A stretch of DNA of 64,000 nucleotides. Origin: Escherichia coli. GTDB taxonomy: Bacteria; Pseudomonadota; Gammaproteobacteria; Enterobacterales; Enterobacteriaceae. The stretch lies in the NCBI RefSeq assembly GCF_011045215.1, contig NZ_CP049201.1; one strand, given 5' to 3'. Positions 15,726-44,506 of this stretch are shown piece after piece. The first letter of the stretch is position 1. Every line of letters begins with the position of its first letter. The notes beneath the pieces were generated by a model that worked only from the letters and a program-made list of their open reading frames with translations, made no database searches and was not told the origin of the DNA. Made by a program: the position numbers and the translations under genes.

Positions 15726-15802
15726 GGAGCGGTAGTTCAGTCGGTTAGAATACCTGCCTGTCACGCAGGGGGTCGCGGGTTCGAGTCCCGTCCGTTCCGC
15801 CA
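15726..15802 (+). tRNA. aspV: tRNA-Asp (GTC anticodon); island integration hotspot
   Basis: Sequence identical to the aspU copy at 7502..7578; followed by a terminator hairpin; foreign DNA begins immediately downstream. Confidence 0.95.
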
Positions 15803-36594: not shown

Positions 36595-36798
36595 TCGTTA
36601 GCCTGTTTTTTCTGGCGGAATGACGGCATAACCCGGAAGGGATATGCCGCCTGCTTCAGCCTATCACGCCATCAACGCAAAAACTCCCCAGCCAAAATAC
36701 TCCCGGCTGTAGGTAACATTACGCATCGGCGCCGCGCTTAACTCTGCCCGAACCTCAAGCGCGAAACCTGATCCTACCCACGTAATATGGACACAGGC

Positions 36799-37665
36799 CT
36801 AAGCGAGGTTCTGGTTTTCAAATTGTTCCGGACTGAGGCCGCCACACCAACTGTGCCGCCGCCACCGATTGTAATCACATTCGATATAATTAAACACCGT
36901 TGCCCGCATTATTTCCCGGCTGATAAAGTGTTCTCCATGGATACATTCCACTTTCAGCGAATGAAAGAAGCTTTCCACGCAGGCATTATCGTAGCAGCAA
37001 CCTTTTGCGCTCATACTTCCACGCAGATTATGCCGCTTCAGTTGCGCCTGATAATCTGCTGAACAGTACTGGCCTCCACGGTCCGTGTGAACGATAACGT
37101 TCCGGGGCCTCTTACGCCGCCACAGCGCCATCTGCAGGGCATCGCAGGCCAGTTGCGCCGTCATGCGTGGCGACATTGACCAGCCAATAACGGCACGTGA
37201 CCACAGGTCAATGACCACTGCCAGATACAGCCAGCCTTCATCTGTACGTAAGTACGTGATGTCTCCTGCCCACTTCTGGTTCGGGCCACTGGCGTAAAAA
37301 TCCTGCTCCAACAGATTTTCTGACACAGGCAGGCCGTGTGCGCGGTAGCTGACCGGGCTGAACTTCCGGGAGGCCTTTGCCCTCAGTCCCTGACGGCGCA
37401 GGCTTGCCGCCACGGTTTTTACGTTAAAGGGGTAACCCTGAGCACGCAGTTCATCCGTCAGGCGTGGGGCACCGTAACGCTGTTTTGACCGGGTAAAAGC
37501 CGCGAGGACAACGCTGTCGCAGTGTTGGCGGAACTGCTGACGCGTGCTTATCCTTGTCCGCCGCTGACACCACGTATACCAGCCGCTGCGGGCCACCCGG
37601 AGCACGCGGCACATTGCTTTGATGCTGAACTCAGCCTGATGTTTTTCAATAAAGACATACTTCAT
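36799..37665 (-). CDS. insF: IS3 transposase OrfB (DDE integrase-type catalytic domain)
   Basis: 288-aa ORF with DDE-domain residues (...WAGDITYL..., ...[10 protein letters not shown]...) inside the IS3 element. Confidence 0.9.
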
Positions 37666-37970
37666 TTCAGGCGCTTCGCGAAGTATGTCGCGGCCTTTTG
37701 GAGGATAGCCAGCTCTTCATCCCGTTCTGCCAGCTGGCGTTTGAGACGTGCAATCTCGGTAGACATCTCCAGTTCACGTTCAGAAGACGTCTGCTGATTT
37801 TGCTGTTTACTGCGCCAGTTGTAGAGCTGTGATTCATACAGGCTGAGTTCACGGGCTGCGGCAGTAACACCGATGCGTTCAGCAAGCTTCAGGGCTTCAC
37901 TGCGAAATTCAGGCGAATGCTGTTTACGGGGTTTTTTACTGGTTGATACTGTTTTTGTCATGTGAGTCAC
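37662..37970 (-). CDS. insE: IS3 transposase OrfA (HTH protein)
   Basis: 102-aa [55 protein letters not shown]... inside the IS3 element. Confidence 0.9.
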
Positions 37971-38042
37971 CTCTGACTGAGAGTTTACTCACTTAGCCGC
38001 GTGTCCACTATTGCTGGGTAAGATCACATCGCTATTAATATT

Positions 38043-38150
38043 TTGACGAATGATAAGGTATTCAAGGCAGGGTTAAGACGTAAGATGCGAAAAGCAGCCA
38101 TGGACAGAAACTATCTCGCGTCAGTACTTGCGGGGAACTGGCTTTCGTAA
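38043..38150 (+). pseudogene. 3'-terminal fragment of an ISAs1-family (H-repeat-associated) transposase gene
   Basis: Translates to [35 protein letters not shown], matching the conserved C-terminus of ISAs1/H-repeat transposases; truncated right next to the IS3 end. Confidence 0.75.
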
Positions 38151-38337
38151 TCTTGCCCTGATCCCGATAGCGGTCTAATTATTTATAGCACAAGTGGTTT
38201 TTCAATGAATGGGGAAGATCAAGTGAAAAATAATATTCATTAAAAATTGAATAAAATTGAGAGAAGTATATCTCTTTTTAAAAAAGATCCTATTACTTGA
38301 TAGAAGTAATGGTAATTTATGATATGTTCTTATTACA

Positions 38338-38589
38338 TTGAAGAGTATAACTCTTTCCAAAACAGAATTAACATCATCCGTTCTTAAGCAATATCGATTG
38401 GAACTTCTGAAGTATCATGTTGAACTTGTTGAGTTATTTAATAAATATTATATTGTGAATTATAATCCTCAAAGACCCTATCGTATGCATATGTTTCCTC
38501 CTGTGGATGCGGTAGATGGACTTGTGTTTGGTGAAGTGGACCTGAGTAGAATTAGAGATAATATGAATCAGATCTCAAGGAGAATATAA
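38338..38589 (+). CDS. Hypothetical small protein (83 aa), AT-rich, upstream of the PAAR gene
   Basis: ORF only; no recognised motif. Confidence 0.3.
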   Translation: MKSITLSKTELTSSVLKQYRLELLKYHVELVELFNKYYIVNYNPQRPYRMHMFPPVDAVDGLVFGEVDLSRIRDNMNQISRRI

Positions 38590-38906
38590 GAATTGGAAAG
38601 GAGCTTTCCTTTCAGGCTGCTTTAACTTCGGTAAAATACGTTCTTGAAGCACCAGATAATAAAGTCGGTAATATTGCCACTATTGAGTTTTTCATCAAGG
38701 TTAATTACGAGAATAACCCTTCTGATAAAGCTGAAGTTGAGAAGGTGCTTAATGAATCAGAACTGAAGAATGCTCTTAAGTCCAGAATTCTTGATGATAC
38801 TGTCAGGCAACACAGATGATTAAATCATCTGGATGTATTTAATGCATAAACATTTCTGAATGATACATAAAAATTGTATTTAATGTTTCCCTCCTGGAGA
38901 ATCTCT

Positions 38907-39191
38907 ATGCCCACAGCAGCCAGACTCAGCGATAAAGGCACCCAGCATGACGGTTATTATGAGACCACCATTATTGCAGGCTCCTCCACCGTCTTTATTG
39001 ATGGTATGCCCGCCGCCCGTCAGGGCGATCCGCTGACACCGCATTCCAAACCTGACCATCCCCCTCACCCCCGTAAAATCGCAGGCGGCTCTGCCACTGT
39101 CTTTATTGACGGTAAACCTGCCGCCAGAACCGGCGATGCCATTGACTGTGGCGGCGTGGTTATCGGTGGCGGCACGGTAAATATAGGCTGA
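38907..39191 (+). CDS. PAAR-domain protein (T6SS spike tip)
   Basis: 94-aa protein with PAAR repeats (DGMPAARQGDP, DGKPAARTGDAIDCGG); start placed at the internal Met preceded by GGAGA; immediately upstream of vgrG. Confidence 0.85.
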   Translation: MPTAARLSDKGTQHDGYYETTIIAGSSTVFIDGMPAARQGDPLTPHSKPDHPPHPRKIAGGSATVFIDGKPAARTGDAIDCGGVVIGGGTVNIG

Positions 39192-39211: not shown

Positions 39212-41611
39212 ATGCCCTCAGAAGGATTACGTTTCACGCTGTCGGTGGACGGTATCGTGGAGATGGCGACGGCGGTGGTGAGCTTCCGTCTGTACCAGCA
39301 CCACTGCACGCCGTTCATCCTGGATGTGGATATCGCCAGCGGGCTGTCTGACCTGACGGCGGAGGATTTTCTGGAGAAGAGCGCGGTGCTGACGGTCTGG
39401 CAGGGTGATATCCCGCAGCGTTACGTCAGCGGTATCGTGACGGAGGTGCAACTGGGGGAGAACAACGACTGGCAGATGCGTTATTCCCTGAGCATCAGCC
39501 CGCCGCTGTGGCGGGCAGGGTTACGGCAGAACTTCCGTATCTTCCAGCAGCAGGACATCCAGACGATATCAGCACAGCTTCTGAGAGAGAACGGAGTGAC
39601 GGCATGGATGCCGCTGTTTTATGAAGACCATCCGGCGCGGGAGTTCTGTGTGCAGTACGGGGAAAGCGACCTGGCGTTTCTGGCGCGGCTGTGGGCGGAG
39701 GAGGGGATTTTCTTCTTTGAGCGGTTTGCGGCGGACAGTCCGGAGCAGAAGCTGACGCTGTGCGACGATGTGGCGGGGCTGTCACAGGCGGGAGAGCTTC
39801 CGTTTAACCCGGACACATCGGCAGGAGCGGAGACGGAGTGTCTCAGTACGTTCCGTTATGAGGCGCATGTCCGCCCGTCGTCGGTGCAGAGTCAGGATTA
39901 CACGTTTAAGGTGCCGGACTGGCCGGGGATGTATGAGCAGCAGGGTGAGAACCTGAACGGACAGCTGGCGCAGTACGAGATATTTGATTATCCGGGAAGG
40001 TTCAAGGATGAGCAGCACGGCAAGGATTTCACGCTGTACCAGATGGACAGCCTGCGCAGTGATGCGGAAAAGGCCACAGGGCAGAGTAATTCACCGAAGC
40101 TGTGGCCGGGAACGCGGTTTACGCTGACGGGGCATCCGCAGAAGATGCTGAACCGTGAATGGCAGGTGGTACAGAGCATACTGTCAGGAAGCCAGCCGCA
40201 GGCGCTGCACGGCAGCCAGGGGAGGGGAACCACGCTGGGAAATCAGTTAGAGGTGATACCGGCAGACCGGACGTGGCGTCCACGGCTGCAAAGCAAACCG
40301 AAGGTGGACGGGCCGCAGAGTGCCATTGTGACCGGGCCGAAGGGTGAGGAGATATTCTGCGACGAACATGGCCGGGTACGGGTGAAGTTCCACTGGGACC
40401 GTTATCACGGGATGACGGAGGCGAGTTCATGCTGGGTGCGGGTATCGCAGGCGTGGGCGGGGCCGGGGTTCGGTAACCTGGCGATACCGCGGGTGGGCCA
40501 GGAGGTGATTGTTGACTTCCTGAACGGCGACCCGGACCAGCCCATCGTCACGGGACGGACCTACCATGAAGATAACCGCTCCCCGGGCGACCTGCCGGGA
40601 ACGAAGACGCAGATGACGATACGGTCGAAGACCTATAAAGAAAGCGGATTTAACGAGTTGCGGTTTGAAGACGCCACCAGTAATGAGCAGGTGTATATCC
40701 ACGCGCAGAAGAACATGGATACGGAGGTGCTCAACGACCGGACAACGGATGTGAAGCATGACCATACGGAGACCATTGGTAACGACCAGAAGATAACGGT
40801 GGTGAAGGGGCAGACGGTTGAGGTCGGGACCAGAAAAGAAGGAGGCCACGACCAGAGTATCACGGTGGCGAACGACCGGAGCATAACGGTACGTAACGAC
40901 CAGACGCTGAAGGTGACAAATGACCGGACGGTGAGCGTGAGTCACGATGACGGTCTGTACGTCAGAAATGACCGTAGGGTGACGGTGAAAGGGAAGCAGG
41001 AGCATAAGACGACGGGTAACCACATCAGCCTGGTGGAGGGGAAGCACAGCCTGGAGGTGAAGGGGGACCTGGCGGAGAAGGTGAGTGGCGCGCTGGGGAT
41101 AGAAGTGGACGGGGATATCGTGCTGGAGAGCAGCAGCCGGATAAGCCTGAAGGTGGGTGGCTCGTTTATCGTCATTCAGCCGGGCGGAGTGGATATTGCC
41201 GGGCCGAAGATAAACCTGAACGGTGGGGGCAGTGCGGGGACACCGGTGGGGACGATGCAGCCGGCGGTGCTGGAGGCTCCGGAGGATGAGAGCAGTGATG
41301 ATGGCAGTGATGACTCCGGAGAGGATAGTGGCAATCCCGCAGGGAGTGACGGAGGAGGTGATGGCGGTGACGATGAAGATGATCCTGAAAAATATACCCT
41401 CCAGTTCCATTTTACGGACGATGACGGGATACCGTATTCAGAGACGCAGTATATTGCCTTTTTTGAGGATGGCACACAGACGCGTGGTGAAACAGACAGA
41501 GAGGGATATACAGAAATATTTTATACAGATACAGCACAGGAAATTAAAGTCCAATTGTTATTTTCGGATGCTTTTTATATTGAGCCGGAGGGGCATTATG
41601 GCAGGGAATAA
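39212..41611 (+). CDS. vgrG: Type VI secretion spike protein VgrG (799 aa) with an acidic linker and a small C-terminal extension domain
   Basis: Gp27-like N-terminal region, gp5-like OB-fold and beta-helix (WAGPGFGNLAIPRVGQEVIVDFLNGDPDQPIVTGRTYHEDNR; repeated ...NDRT/ITV... units), then an Asp/Glu/Gly/Ser-rich linker and a roughly 70-aa C-terminal domain. Confidence 0.92.
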   Translation: MPSEGLRFTLSVDGIVEMATAVVSFRLYQHHCTPFILDVDIASGLSDLTAEDFLEKSAVLTVWQGDIPQRYVSGIVTEVQLGENNDWQMRYSLSISPPLWRAGLRQNFRIFQQQDIQTISAQLLRENGVTAWMPLFYEDHPAREFCVQYGESDLAFLARLWAEEGIFFFERFAADSPEQKLTLCDDVAGLSQAGELPFNPDTSAGAETECLSTFRYEAHVRPSSVQSQDYTFKVPDWPGMYEQQGENLNGQLAQYEIFDYPGRFKDEQHGKDFTLYQMDSLRSDAEKATGQSNSPKLWPGTRFTLTGHPQKMLNREWQVVQSILSGSQPQALHGSQGRGTTLGNQLEVIPADRTWRPRLQSKPKVDGPQSAIVTGPKGEEIFCDEHGRVRVKFHWDRYHGMTEASSCWVRVSQAWAGPGFGNLAIPRVGQEVIVDFLNGDPDQPIVTGRTYHEDNRSPGDLPGTKTQMTIRSKTYKESGFNELRFEDATSNEQVYIHAQKNMDTEVLNDRTTDVKHDHTETIGNDQKITVVKGQTVEVGTRKEGGHDQSITVANDRSITVRNDQTLKVTNDRTVSVSHDDGLYVRNDRRVTVKGKQEHKTTGNHISLVEGKHSLEVKGDLAEKVSGALGIEVDGDIVLESSSRISLKVGGSFIVIQPGGVDIAGPKINLNGGGSAGTPVGTMQPAVLEAPEDESSDDGSDDSGEDSGNPAGSDGGGDGGDDEDDPEKYTLQFHFTDDDGIPYSETQYIAFFEDGTQTRGETDREGYTEIFYTDTAQEIKVQLLFSDAFYIEPEGHYGRE

Positions 41612-42402: not shown

Positions 42403-43242
42403 ATGAAGAGGTTGGCTTTCTATAATCTAAATTATGTTGTACTGATGGTTTTTTTTCTTTGTTTTTTGCCATTATCTATTGCAATTGCAATAGATAATGA
42501 GAATCTTTTTGTAAAAAAATACAGATTCGGTTTTGAACGAAGAAATGACAATGGGAAACCAATTATTTATCTTAGCCATAATTTAGCGCCAGAGGAAAAT
42601 ATAAGTAATGAATTAACAAATGATGTTGTTGTTAAATTGGTGGTTAAGCCACATGCTGAAAATATTTTAGCTACTATAACTTTTTATAACAGTAGTACTA
42701 AATCGTATTTTCTCCCCAGAATATATTATCCAAAGAACTTCCAAAAAGGAAATGGAGATGTATTTGATGCTTTGTGTGATGACGAATTCTTGATTACATC
42801 AGGAAATATTAGCTTAGACTATCTAGGAGGCTTTTGTCCCTTTGAGCTTGATTTGAATTTGAGCCGATGGGTGGAAATTACGGCAGGTAAAAAAATATCT
42901 TTTGATGTAAAATTGAATGATATGCATTCATTTCTCCCCAGTTTAAATAATTATCATATAAAAACATTAAACTACAAACTTGTTAGGAGAAAATGGTTTG
43001 TATTAAAATCAATTAATGAAACATTCCTCTCTATTTTGATGAAAAGATACTCATGTAATGAATATGATTTTAGAGCTATATCATTTAGTGGAGAGGGATG
43101 TGATAATTATGAATTTGATAAAAATACGTTTTTTTTTGTTAATCAAATATTAGATAAAGATGATGAGCAACATTCTGTTCATATTAGGTCTAATGAATTT
43201 TCCATCAATATCGATGGAAGCTTGGTAAAGCAACCTTATTGA
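42403..43242 (+). CDS. Putative cognate immunity protein (279 aa, N-terminal signal peptide or membrane anchor)
   Basis: Begins 1 nt after the effector stop; hydrophobic N-terminus (VVLMVFFLCFLPLSIAIAI) suggests periplasmic localisation; AT-rich like the effector gene. Confidence 0.5.
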   Translation: MKRLAFYNLNYVVLMVFFLCFLPLSIAIAIDNENLFVKKYRFGFERRNDNGKPIIYLSHNLAPEENISNELTNDVVVKLVVKPHAENILATITFYNSSTKSYFLPRIYYPKNFQKGNGDVFDALCDDEFLITSGNISLDYLGGFCPFELDLNLSRWVEITAGKKISFDVKLNDMHSFLPSLNNYHIKTLNYKLVRRKWFVLKSINETFLSILMKRYSCNEYDFRAISFSGEGCDNYEFDKNTFFFVNQILDKDDEQHSVHIRSNEFSINIDGSLVKQPY

Positions 43243-43304
43243 TTAAAATGTATCGCAGGTTTTATTTTCTGTAATGCTGGTGCATGTGCGTAAATATTTC
43301 TTAA

Positions 43305-43730
43305 GAGCCGGAAACACCTCTTCCGCCTTTATCGACGATAAACCTACCGCCAGAACCGGTGATGCCATTGACTGCGGTGGCGTGGTTAAAGGTGGAGGGC
43401 GATGTGGTGCTGGAGAGCAGCAGCCGGATAAGCCTGAAGGTGGGCGGCTCGTTTGTGGTCATCCATTCAGGGGGCGTGGACATCGTCGGGCCGAAAATCA
43501 ATCTCAATAGCGGCGGTAGTCCGGGAACGCCGGTGCCGACGCTGCAACCGGCGGTTCTGAAAGCGCTGGCAGATGATAAAAGTTTAGCGGCTGAGCAAAA
43601 TGATAGTAATGCATCGTCCGATCAGAATGATAACAACGATGAGGGTGAGGAAGCGCCAGAAAAATCGGTGTGTAAGGAGTGCCTGAAAAGGGCGCAAGAA
43701 GCCGCCGCCGTTTTTGCGCCTCGTGGATAA
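43305..43730 (+). pseudogene. PAAR-vgrG deletion-fusion remnant (3' end of a PAAR gene joined to the 3' end of a second vgrG)
   Basis: 43309..43392 closely matches the PAAR 3' end at 39092..39175 (...FIDDKPTARTGDAIDCGGVV...); from about 43393 the sequence matches vgrG at about 41110..41245 (VLESSSRISLKVGGSF.V.....GGVDI.GPKINLN.GG) and then continues into a different C-terminal tail. Confidence 0.8.
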
Positions 43731-43736
43731 GGGAGA

Positions 43737-44506
43737 ATGACAATGATAACAGTATCGCCACACGCTACCGATCAAGACAAATATATTATCTGGCTGAAGC
43801 AAGCTGAATCATTCTGTTCTGCCGCTGGTTTGGATTACATAGATGTGCTTGTTGACCAGGCTGGAACCGACCAACCTTTGCAAAATGATATGCTTCATCT
43901 GTCGCCAGCCATTCACTGGTATGCCCTGTTTGAAGGAACGCCTGAAGCTGAGACGATGGAGTATTCCCCTGTAGTGTTACGCCTGTACTTTGCGCTCAGT
44001 AGCCATCGCAAATTTCTGGCACAACTGATGGCGTCATTTGCTGATACGCCGCGTCTTACTTTGTTGATATCCCCTCTTACATTCGACCTGCTGGGCGGCA
44101 TCTTCAGGTATTGTCACAGGTTCAGTGGGAAGAACAGACCGGATTGCTGCGTTACTATGATAATCGGGTGTTCCCTTTACTGTTCACACATGTTTTGACT
44201 AACGAGCAGCAGGCGACATTTACTGATATTGCGTTGTTCTGGAGCTGGTTAGACCGTGATGGTGAGATTAACTGGAAATCAGGAAGTTTTTCACCAGAAC
44301 GCAGGCTTACTGACAACCCGGAGATGAATCGGGTGGATGATGTACAGGTGGGATTGATGGGCTGTATCTGCGACGCTGAAGTCCTGATGAAGGAGAAAGC
44401 AGTCAGTGAACTCAGTCAGGAAAGCTATTTTGCCCACTGTCTTGATATTGCTTTCAGGGCCAATGACGCGAAATATTTCGGAGCTTTGCGGGACTTCGAA
44501 GGATAA
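43737..44506 (+). pseudogene. T6SS adaptor/chaperone-like gene (DUF4123-type, Tap/Tec family), split across two overlapping reading frames
   Basis: Two overlapping ORFs (43737..44198 and 44111..44506) together span about 256 codons, in the adaptor position between a vgrG 3' end and a DUF2235 effector gene; family assignment is by position and recalled sequence character. Confidence 0.5.

Follow-up and report, generated by a model that had tools for sequence, protein, structure and literature searches.

The DNA described here is a window of 64,000 nucleotides, the whole stretch that was analysed, from the chromosome of Escherichia coli. The window includes rrnH, aspV (15726-15802) and the yafV/ivy/fadE side. 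Within it, a segment rich in AT lies immediately upstream of an intact PAAR-VgrG module; the GC content of positions 38171-38880 is 31.5%. An open reading frame of 83 codons with a TTG start (38338..38589, plus strand) is present in the program-made ORF list, and a second frame, on the same strand and offset by one base, stays open from 38563 up to the TGA at 38817-38819. An earlier, sequence-only reading of the window had pointed to this 83-aa ORF and to further coding-like sequence in a very AT-rich stretch, and both are indeed present, at a GC content of 31-32%. The features within the span that it outlined are real, although its left edge was drawn too narrowly, as the relic described below begins at 38223 and is preceded by the remnant of another gene that reaches back to 38161. 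The features of this part of the window are listed below.

36769..38026, minus strand: IS3, with InsE/InsF-type ORFs at 37662-37970 and 36799-37665 and 99.4-99.9% identity to annotated IS3 copies; its ends are approximate, as judged from the point at which the IS3 and ISEc1 matches meet and from the known length of the element
38027..38160, plus strand: 3'-terminal 134 bp of an ISEc1/H-repeat element (ISAs1 family), with 94-96% identity to the ends of thousands of annotated ISEc1 copies
38161..38188, plus strand: 3' relic of a putative effector gene, comprising the last ~9 codons (...DPDSGLKYI* in intact genes); its DNA aligns with the effector ORFs of loci L005 and L007 at their 3' ends
38189..38222, plus strand: native spacer between the putative effector and immunity genes, with a Shine-Dalgarno-like GGGGAAG at 38211-38217; aligns with L005 1102-1138
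38223..38819, plus strand: pseudogene of a ~200-aa putative T6SS immunity protein, found by phmmer with the fused frames and by DNA alignment to intact genes
38820..38906, plus strand: intergenic region between the immunity relic and the PAAR gene, 87 bp, 27.6% GC, with the PAAR ribosome-binding site CTGGAGAA; conserved with loci L005 and L016
38907..39191, plus strand: PAAR gene, 94 aa, the first of the intact module; the same CDS is called by PGAP in E. coli ET350, and the product has 88% identity to the PAAR protein of the related genome L004 (tblastn)
39212..41611, plus strand: VgrG, 799 aa
41598-42401: M35 peptidase effector, after VgrG
42466-43242: putative immunity gene of the M35 effector

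The identities of the VgrG, M35 and immunity products to annotated L004 proteins range from 92 to 99%.

A single pseudogene in two frames

The length of the open frames is of limited help in deciding whether this DNA was ever coding. In 5000 dinucleotide-preserving shuffles, an open run of at least 88 codons arises in 10%, and two runs on the same strand that total at least 170 codons arise in 1.7%. ORF length alone is thus weak evidence for coding, and homology is decisive. Neither the two fragments nor their fusion matched a Pfam or NCBIfam family, and a peptide-pattern scan of species-representative genomes gave no confirmed relative. A word-indexed protein search with the fusion returned only a near-identical Logan fragment and was set aside; the protein family surfaced only by an exhaustive phmmer search against 1.84 billion representatives, in which the query was a conceptual fusion of the two frames. 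A homology search of the small ORFs had been proposed by the sequence-only reading, and it proved productive, with seven full-length, intact homologues (199-270 aa) that are each matched by one continuous alignment across both halves of the query (residues 2-157), as follows.

P0002: E=1.6e-48, 60% identity; the best intact relative, 199 aa
P0004: E=2.4e-37, 51% identity
P0005: E=2.1e-30, 45% identity
P0006: E=1.1e-29, 44% identity
P0007: E=1.3e-21, 38% identity
P0008: E=9.2e-20, 37% identity
P0009: E=2.8e-17, 37% identity

Because intact homologues align to the fused frames in one stretch, there is one gene here rather than two, and positions 38223-38819 are a single pseudogene of a conserved protein family. 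What had been taken for several small ORFs are pieces of this pseudogene of ~200 codons, which starts 115 bp upstream of 38338: the 83-aa ORF (38338-38589) is its middle fragment and the stretch at 38600-38820 its C-terminal fragment. The homologues are longer than the 83-aa ORF by ~40 N-terminal residues, the counterparts of which can be made out in the window ahead of 38338, split between two frames.

To place the lesions, the window DNA was aligned with the intact genes found in L005 (Escherichia sp. E4385, WP_138184035.1) and L007.

38223, plus strand: start codon GTG, ATG in homologues
38241-38243, plus strand: TAA nonsense codon
38295, plus strand: +1 insertion (A)
38320-38322, plus strand: TGA nonsense codon, CGA in L005
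between 38559 and 38560, plus strand: 16-nt deletion
38817-38819, plus strand: present position of the stop codon, shifted by three codons

The switch of frame is placed at 38559/38562 by tblastn. When A38295 is removed and the 16 missing nucleotides are padded, a single frame of 204 codons results, the translation of which aligns end to end with P0002 at 116 of 199 positions (58%) and has 62% identity to P0012. No intact ORF for an immunity component is present in the window copy, which is broken by the two nonsense codons, the +1 insertion and the 16-nt deletion.

It is very improbable that the 83-aa ORF and the frame downstream of it are independent functional small genes, for instance regulators or a small toxin-antitoxin pair. 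The 83-aa ORF is predicted by gene callers in metagenome assemblies (P0003, P0028), but the two frames are collinear fragments of one family member; the TTG of the first has no Shine-Dalgarno sequence and corresponds to family residue ~41, the second lacks a start codon near its 5' end, no domain was found, and no gene is annotated by PGAP at the relic locus in ET350. The suggestion that these ORFs regulate the PAAR-vgrG operon is likewise unsupported, as no DNA-binding or other domain was found in them and two frameshifts and two stop codons break the frames.

The dead allele is not confined to the window. Four metagenome contigs (L019, L020, L021 and L024) match the 884-bp segment 38027-38910 at 100% identity over its whole length, and the Logan contigs L022 and L023 match it at 100% identity over the 824-853 bp that are covered in them; in the finished genome of E. 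coli ET350 the identity is 99.7%. All four inactivating lesions are identical in 8 independent sequences. In a distant-mode blastn search with 38171-38880, ET350 was the one match among 5426 complete E. coli genomes, and plasmids gave neither a blastn match to this segment nor a tblastn match to P0002. The lesions are not sequencing errors, because they are identical across independent assemblies and in the finished ET350 genome.

The notion that the gene is really intact, with its frameshifts and stops due to errors of sequencing or assembly or else bypassed by programmed recoding, can for practical purposes be dismissed. One Logan contig, L002 (SRR12299016), does read through the junction at 38560-38590 by means of an extra C. 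However, this contig is rich in homopolymer deletions, the extra C (window position 38574) falls at a GATC site, and a new frameshift follows 200 nt further on, whereas all four lesions are identical in six other independent assemblies and the finished genome; nor is it plausible that recoding would overcome two in-frame stops as well as shifts of +1 and -16. L002 was accordingly discounted as an example of an uninterrupted junction, on account of its homopolymer deletions throughout and the extra C in GATC. As a separate observation, this contig is a case in which an error-prone assembly restored the frame across a 16-nt deletion by chance, and pseudogenes can thus look intact.

The neighbours and nature of the protein family

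The intact homologues have a characteristic neighbourhood. In seven distinct loci (L005/L006, L007, L008, L009, L012/L013, L014/L015 and L016) the intact gene lies directly 3' of, and in the same orientation as, a conserved region of ~256 aa from a VgrG C-terminus, as found by tblastn; these loci come from Escherichia sp., Cronobacter, Lelliottia and gut metagenomes. This region has 53-65% identity between loci (tblastn) and is separated from the ~200-aa gene by 27-70 nt. It consists of an Ig/BIG2-like domain followed by ~170 aa with the conserved motifs PDCGW, WEW and EQKHE, the first and last of which are invariant. In L005, L007 and L016 the region follows the VgrG C-terminus (...VLESSSRISLKVGGSF...INLNGGGSPG) and a linker rich in Gly, Asn and Asp. 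In Cronobacter turicensis (L012 8100-9954) it is attached to a VgrG of another kind, the DUF2345 type, in a stretch without called genes, and in Lelliottia amnigena (L014 8630-9936) it is a stand-alone ORF of 294 aa flanked by VgrG fragments. These two loci show modular shuffling and partial decay of the effector. The loci of the homologues are T6SS clusters with genes for TssB/C/E/F/G/K/L, Hcp, ClpV, PAAR and VgrG, and the window itself has PAAR, VgrG, M35 and Tle1 modules downstream of the relic. On the 3' side, L005 and L016 have the same junction as the window, with the intergenic region and a PAAR gene; the gene that follows is not a PAAR gene in L007, L012 and L014.

A toxin-like domain fused to VgrG and followed by a small gene in the same orientation is the standard effector-immunity architecture of specialised VgrG proteins. 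Because the pair travels on different VgrG bodies in this layout, we infer that the ~200-aa family comprises putative immunity proteins and that the VgrG C-terminal domain is their candidate toxin. The proposal of the sequence-only reading that the small ORFs could be remnants of another effector/immunity cassette is borne out to this extent: the intact homologues follow a toxin-like VgrG C-terminal domain, and the window still contains the final ~9 effector codons. The body of the effector is gone. By tblastn its domain is absent from the 64-kb window and from the ET350 locus, and by blastn it has no match in the 5426 complete E. coli genomes, none of which contains an intact copy of the immunity gene either. 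The relic is thus an orphan in the window and at the ET350 locus.

An alternative that we regard as unlikely is that the family is an accessory factor, such as a chaperone, adaptor or tip-assembly protein, for the evolved VgrG or for PAAR, so that the window copy would be an adaptor pseudogene. The gene does stand between VgrG and PAAR in three loci (the window, L005 and L016), and small all-helical proteins can be chaperones, with a fold search being uninformative. However, the association tracks the C-terminal toxin-like domain, in 7 of the 7 loci that have it, and not PAAR. The domain and the gene occur as a pair on two unrelated VgrG bodies, in the manner of polymorphic toxin/immunity modules, and there is no Pfam match to the adaptor families DUF4123, DUF1795 and DUF2169. 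Nor would a loading adaptor be needed, as the effector domain is covalently part of VgrG and specialised VgrGs with such a fused domain are not known to require one.

The family of putative immunity proteins is small. In a profile search of 5.8 billion clusters it grew to ~15 sequences, all of them annotated as hypothetical; they belong to Escherichia sp. E4385, Cronobacter turicensis, Lelliottia amnigena and metagenomes of gut or environmental origin. For the window fragments, the seven homologues and the effector domain, nothing in Pfam or NCBIfam came at or near a curated threshold; no sequence relatives of the immunity family or the effector domain were found in the PDB, and a literature search by protein accession found nothing. 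An AF2 model of the family has a pLDDT of 92 and eight helices, and such a confidently predicted fold is as expected for a real protein.

Most members begin at a conserved MN(D/N)... N-terminus without a signal peptide. The start called for P0005 falls within the effector gene upstream, and the hydrophobic N-terminus of this protein is probably an artefact of the start call; the extension of P0013 is near-identical to that of P0005. P0006 has an internal Met at the usual start of the family, and the signal of P0008 is ambiguous. A periplasmic location was considered and set aside, given the usual start without a signal peptide and the origin of the longer P0005 N-terminus in a start inside the upstream gene. 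The N-termini suggest that the family is cytoplasmic and hence that the toxin would have a cytoplasmic target.

One member is an exception in its setting. P0006 (242 aa) is encoded in L010 (metagenome scaffold ERZ28571953, 8172-10729), far from any T6SS gene, and ends a run of four small unannotated ORFs of 131, 170, 143 and 168 aa. This run might be an array of orphan immunity genes in another organism.

It seems somewhat more probable than its opposite that the relic exposes an undescribed and extremely rare polymorphic T6SS toxin/immunity family of the Enterobacteriaceae, in which a VgrG-borne Ig/BIG2-like domain and a putative toxin of ~170 aa, without a recognisable fold, would be paired with an eight-helix immunity protein of ~200 aa. 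The family appears undescribed in the sources searched, which are an incomplete sample. If it is indeed undescribed, the toxin could have a new enzymatic activity. A rare unannotated pair of candidate VgrG-toxin and putative immunity protein is thereby flagged in Escherichia sp. E4385, Cronobacter turicensis and Lelliottia amnigena.

The boundaries of the relic

On the left, the DNA shared with intact loci stops just within the effector gene. When the effector and immunity DNA of L005 is compared with ET350 by blastn, the match begins 31 nt before the effector stop codon. Between the effector relic and the pseudogene lies the native spacer, in which L005 has GAGGGGGAG ahead of its annotated start codon. 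The DNA to the left of the effector relic belongs to ISEc1. It encodes the C-terminus of the transposase, with its stop at 38148-38150, followed by the right inverted repeat TCTTGCCCTG at 38151-38160, of which the left inverted repeat, CAGGGAAAGA, is the reverse complement. The position of the right end is fixed by three independent copies, the likeness of which ends right after ...TCTTGCCCTG. Members of the ISAs1 family have a transposase and inverted repeats of the form CAGGG(A/C)AAGA; the window has only the right end, 134 bp, and so holds a fragment rather than a member element.

In ET350 and in L019-L021 and L024 the ISEc1 element is complete, and its left flank there is a VgrG with a Pyocin_S/colicin-DNase C-terminal domain, together with a colicin-type immunity gene and a terminator hairpin. 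Inspection by eye of the ISEc1 flanks in ET350 and L019 revealed no target duplication. Because the left flank is a different cassette and no target duplication was seen, the body of the effector gene appears to have been removed by an IS-associated deletion or recombination and not by a simple insertion.

In the window, ISEc1 has itself been truncated to 134 bp by IS3, an element with a length of 1258 bp, which forms the link between the T6SS accessory island and an unrelated one that encodes an autotransporter, an EAL protein and wHTH and LuxR regulators. The left IS3 junction, with a methyltransferase fragment and the island of the LuxR-type regulator, is shared with E. coli PapRG-06-5, a strain in which fimbrial genes come next instead. 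The right IS3 junction has no match in other complete genomes. This arrangement suggests an IS3-mediated deletion or inversion in the strain of the window.

On the right, the pseudogene is followed by the short intergenic region and the PAAR gene, the start codon of which is the ATG at 38907 and not the TTG at 38874 chosen by the ORF lister. Other E. coli PAAR modules are preceded by unrelated DNA. Comparison of the loci indicates that the junction between the immunity gene and the PAAR module is ancestral, because L005 and L016 share it with an intact immunity gene. Identity to these two loci is 70-72% in the pseudogene, 72-82% in the intergenic region and 88-91% in the PAAR gene, and no special constraint on the intergenic DNA is evident from these figures.

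The DNA upstream of the PAAR gene is clearly ex-coding, and is not promoter DNA only, as the sequence-only reading had allowed that it might prove to be. A related idea, which may coexist with the pseudogene, is that the formerly coding, AT-rich DNA now serves mainly as a promoter or regulatory region, bound for example by H-NS, for a PAAR-vgrG-M35 operon that has been cut off by ISEc1 and IS3. We regard this as a possibility, albeit one with the balance well against it. A segment of 28-32% GC (32.3% in the pseudogene) lies directly upstream of an operon of 57% GC, the PAAR and vgrG genes being at 57-58%; the DNA further upstream is made up of IS elements, and all three loci with this junction have conserved the 87-bp intergenic region. 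Against it, the number of promoter-like sites in a consensus scan did not exceed that of shuffled sequence, with no such site in the 400 bp immediately before the PAAR gene, and the intergenic region is no better kept than the decaying gene and less well kept than the PAAR gene. Nor did Rfam give a hit above the gathering score of a family.

Two candidate elements in this DNA were considered. A match of 32 nt at the PAAR ribosome-binding site to the shuA thermoregulator of Rfam scored 24.6 bits against a gathering score of 58 (E=0.75), and was judged to be due to chance. A scan flags as terminator-like a hairpin at 38813-38831 (CAGATGAT-TAA-ATCATCTG), which overlaps the shifted stop codon at the end of the pseudogene. 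Its left arm differs in L016 and is split by a 6-nt insertion in L005, and the hairpin is probably not functional.

Other T6SS modules in the window are degraded too. The interval between aspV and yafV carries the PAAR-VgrG-M35 module and modules for DUF4123, DUF3304 and Tle1. Between the M35 and DUF4123/Tle1 cassettes lies a further collapsed PAAR-VgrG module (43283-43676), in which a PAAR 3' remnant at 43283-43414 runs straight into a VgrG C-terminal remnant at 43386-43676; the annotation of the related genome L004 lists it as an incomplete VgrG. The gene for a DUF4123 adaptor, a Tla1/Tap-type chaperone for Tle1, occupies 43737-44503. Because the 256-aa L004 protein matches it in two frames, with residues 1-120 at 43737-44096 and residues 120-256 at 44093-44503, this gene is frameshifted near 44093-44096. 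A tblastn search with TssC, K, L, G, E, A, Hcp and ClpV found no T6SS core genes in the 64-kb window, and its effector modules appear to be stranded from their secretion apparatus, unless a T6SS is encoded elsewhere in the genome.

Proposed cassette turnover and comparison with known systems

The explanation that we consider likely is that positions 38223-38819 are a dead, orphaned immunity gene from the toxin/immunity cassette of an evolved VgrG. The ancestral locus would have encoded a VgrG spike with a C-terminal extension of ~256 aa, made up of an Ig/BIG2-like linker and a toxin-like domain of ~170 aa. The next gene would have encoded an all-helical, cytoplasmic protein of ~200 aa that binds the toxin and protects the producer, and it would have been followed by a short intergenic region and the next PAAR-VgrG module. 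The effector gene would then have been lost in an event that involved the ISAs1-family element ISEc1, with only its last ~9 codons left beside the right end of the IS. The immunity gene, left without a toxin, would subsequently have acquired the two nonsense codons, the +1 insertion and the 16-nt deletion and become non-functional DNA. This order, with loss of the effector before decay of the immunity gene, is the one we infer; decay of an immunity gene is to be expected where there is no toxin to neutralise.

On this explanation, the locus would provide a base-resolved case in E. coli of the turnover of a T6SS cassette, in which an effector was lost at an IS boundary and the stranded immunity gene decayed. 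The decayed allele would then have spread unchanged together with the neighbouring PAAR-vgrG module. For the annotation of the window, the small ORFs are best recorded neither as genes nor as regulators, and are replaced by one pseudogene and the 3' remnant of an effector gene.

The cassette resembles those of the specialised VgrG effectors, such as the VgrG with a Pyocin_S/colicin-DNase domain in L019 and ET350, in that a toxin-like domain stands after a linker rich in Gly, Asp and Asn and is followed by a small gene. It differs in that neither its C-terminal domain nor its immunity protein has a match among the families of Pfam, NCBIfam or the PDB, and in that the window keeps nothing of the VgrG-toxin body.

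In the Rhs/vgrG islands of E. coli, H-repeat elements (ISEc1, of the ISAs1 family) separate AT-rich cassettes of toxin tips and immunity genes. The window shares with these islands an AT-rich cassette beside a GC-rich core, an ISEc1 element at the edge of the cassette and multiple degraded remnants of modules. It differs in that the core is PAAR-VgrG and not Rhs, and in that ISEc1 is itself cut by IS3.

In Vibrio cholerae, T6SS effectors have been displaced and their immunity genes retained as orphans (Kirchberger et al. 2017, PMC5361080). Like these orphans, the relic in the window is homologous to putative immunity genes of effector-immunity pairs in other strains and species, and it is found at a boundary of successive T6SS modules without an effector, with a short effector 3' remnant kept. 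In contrast to them, the window copy has not been maintained, and with its four inactivating lesions it cannot protect. Further differences are that the displacement involved an ISAs1-family element and was no simple homologous replacement, that the host is E. coli and that the family is uncharacterised.

The rAID arrays of gut Bacteroidales consist of orphan immunity genes that are intact, protective, associated with a recombinase and under positive selection (PMC12247911). They have in common with the window an immunity gene without a cognate effector in gut bacteria, whereas the window holds a single decayed gene with no recombinase association. An orphaned immunity gene is thus a known phenomenon; in this instance it is dead, it lies at a breakpoint marked by an ISAs1-family element, and it belongs to an unannotated family.
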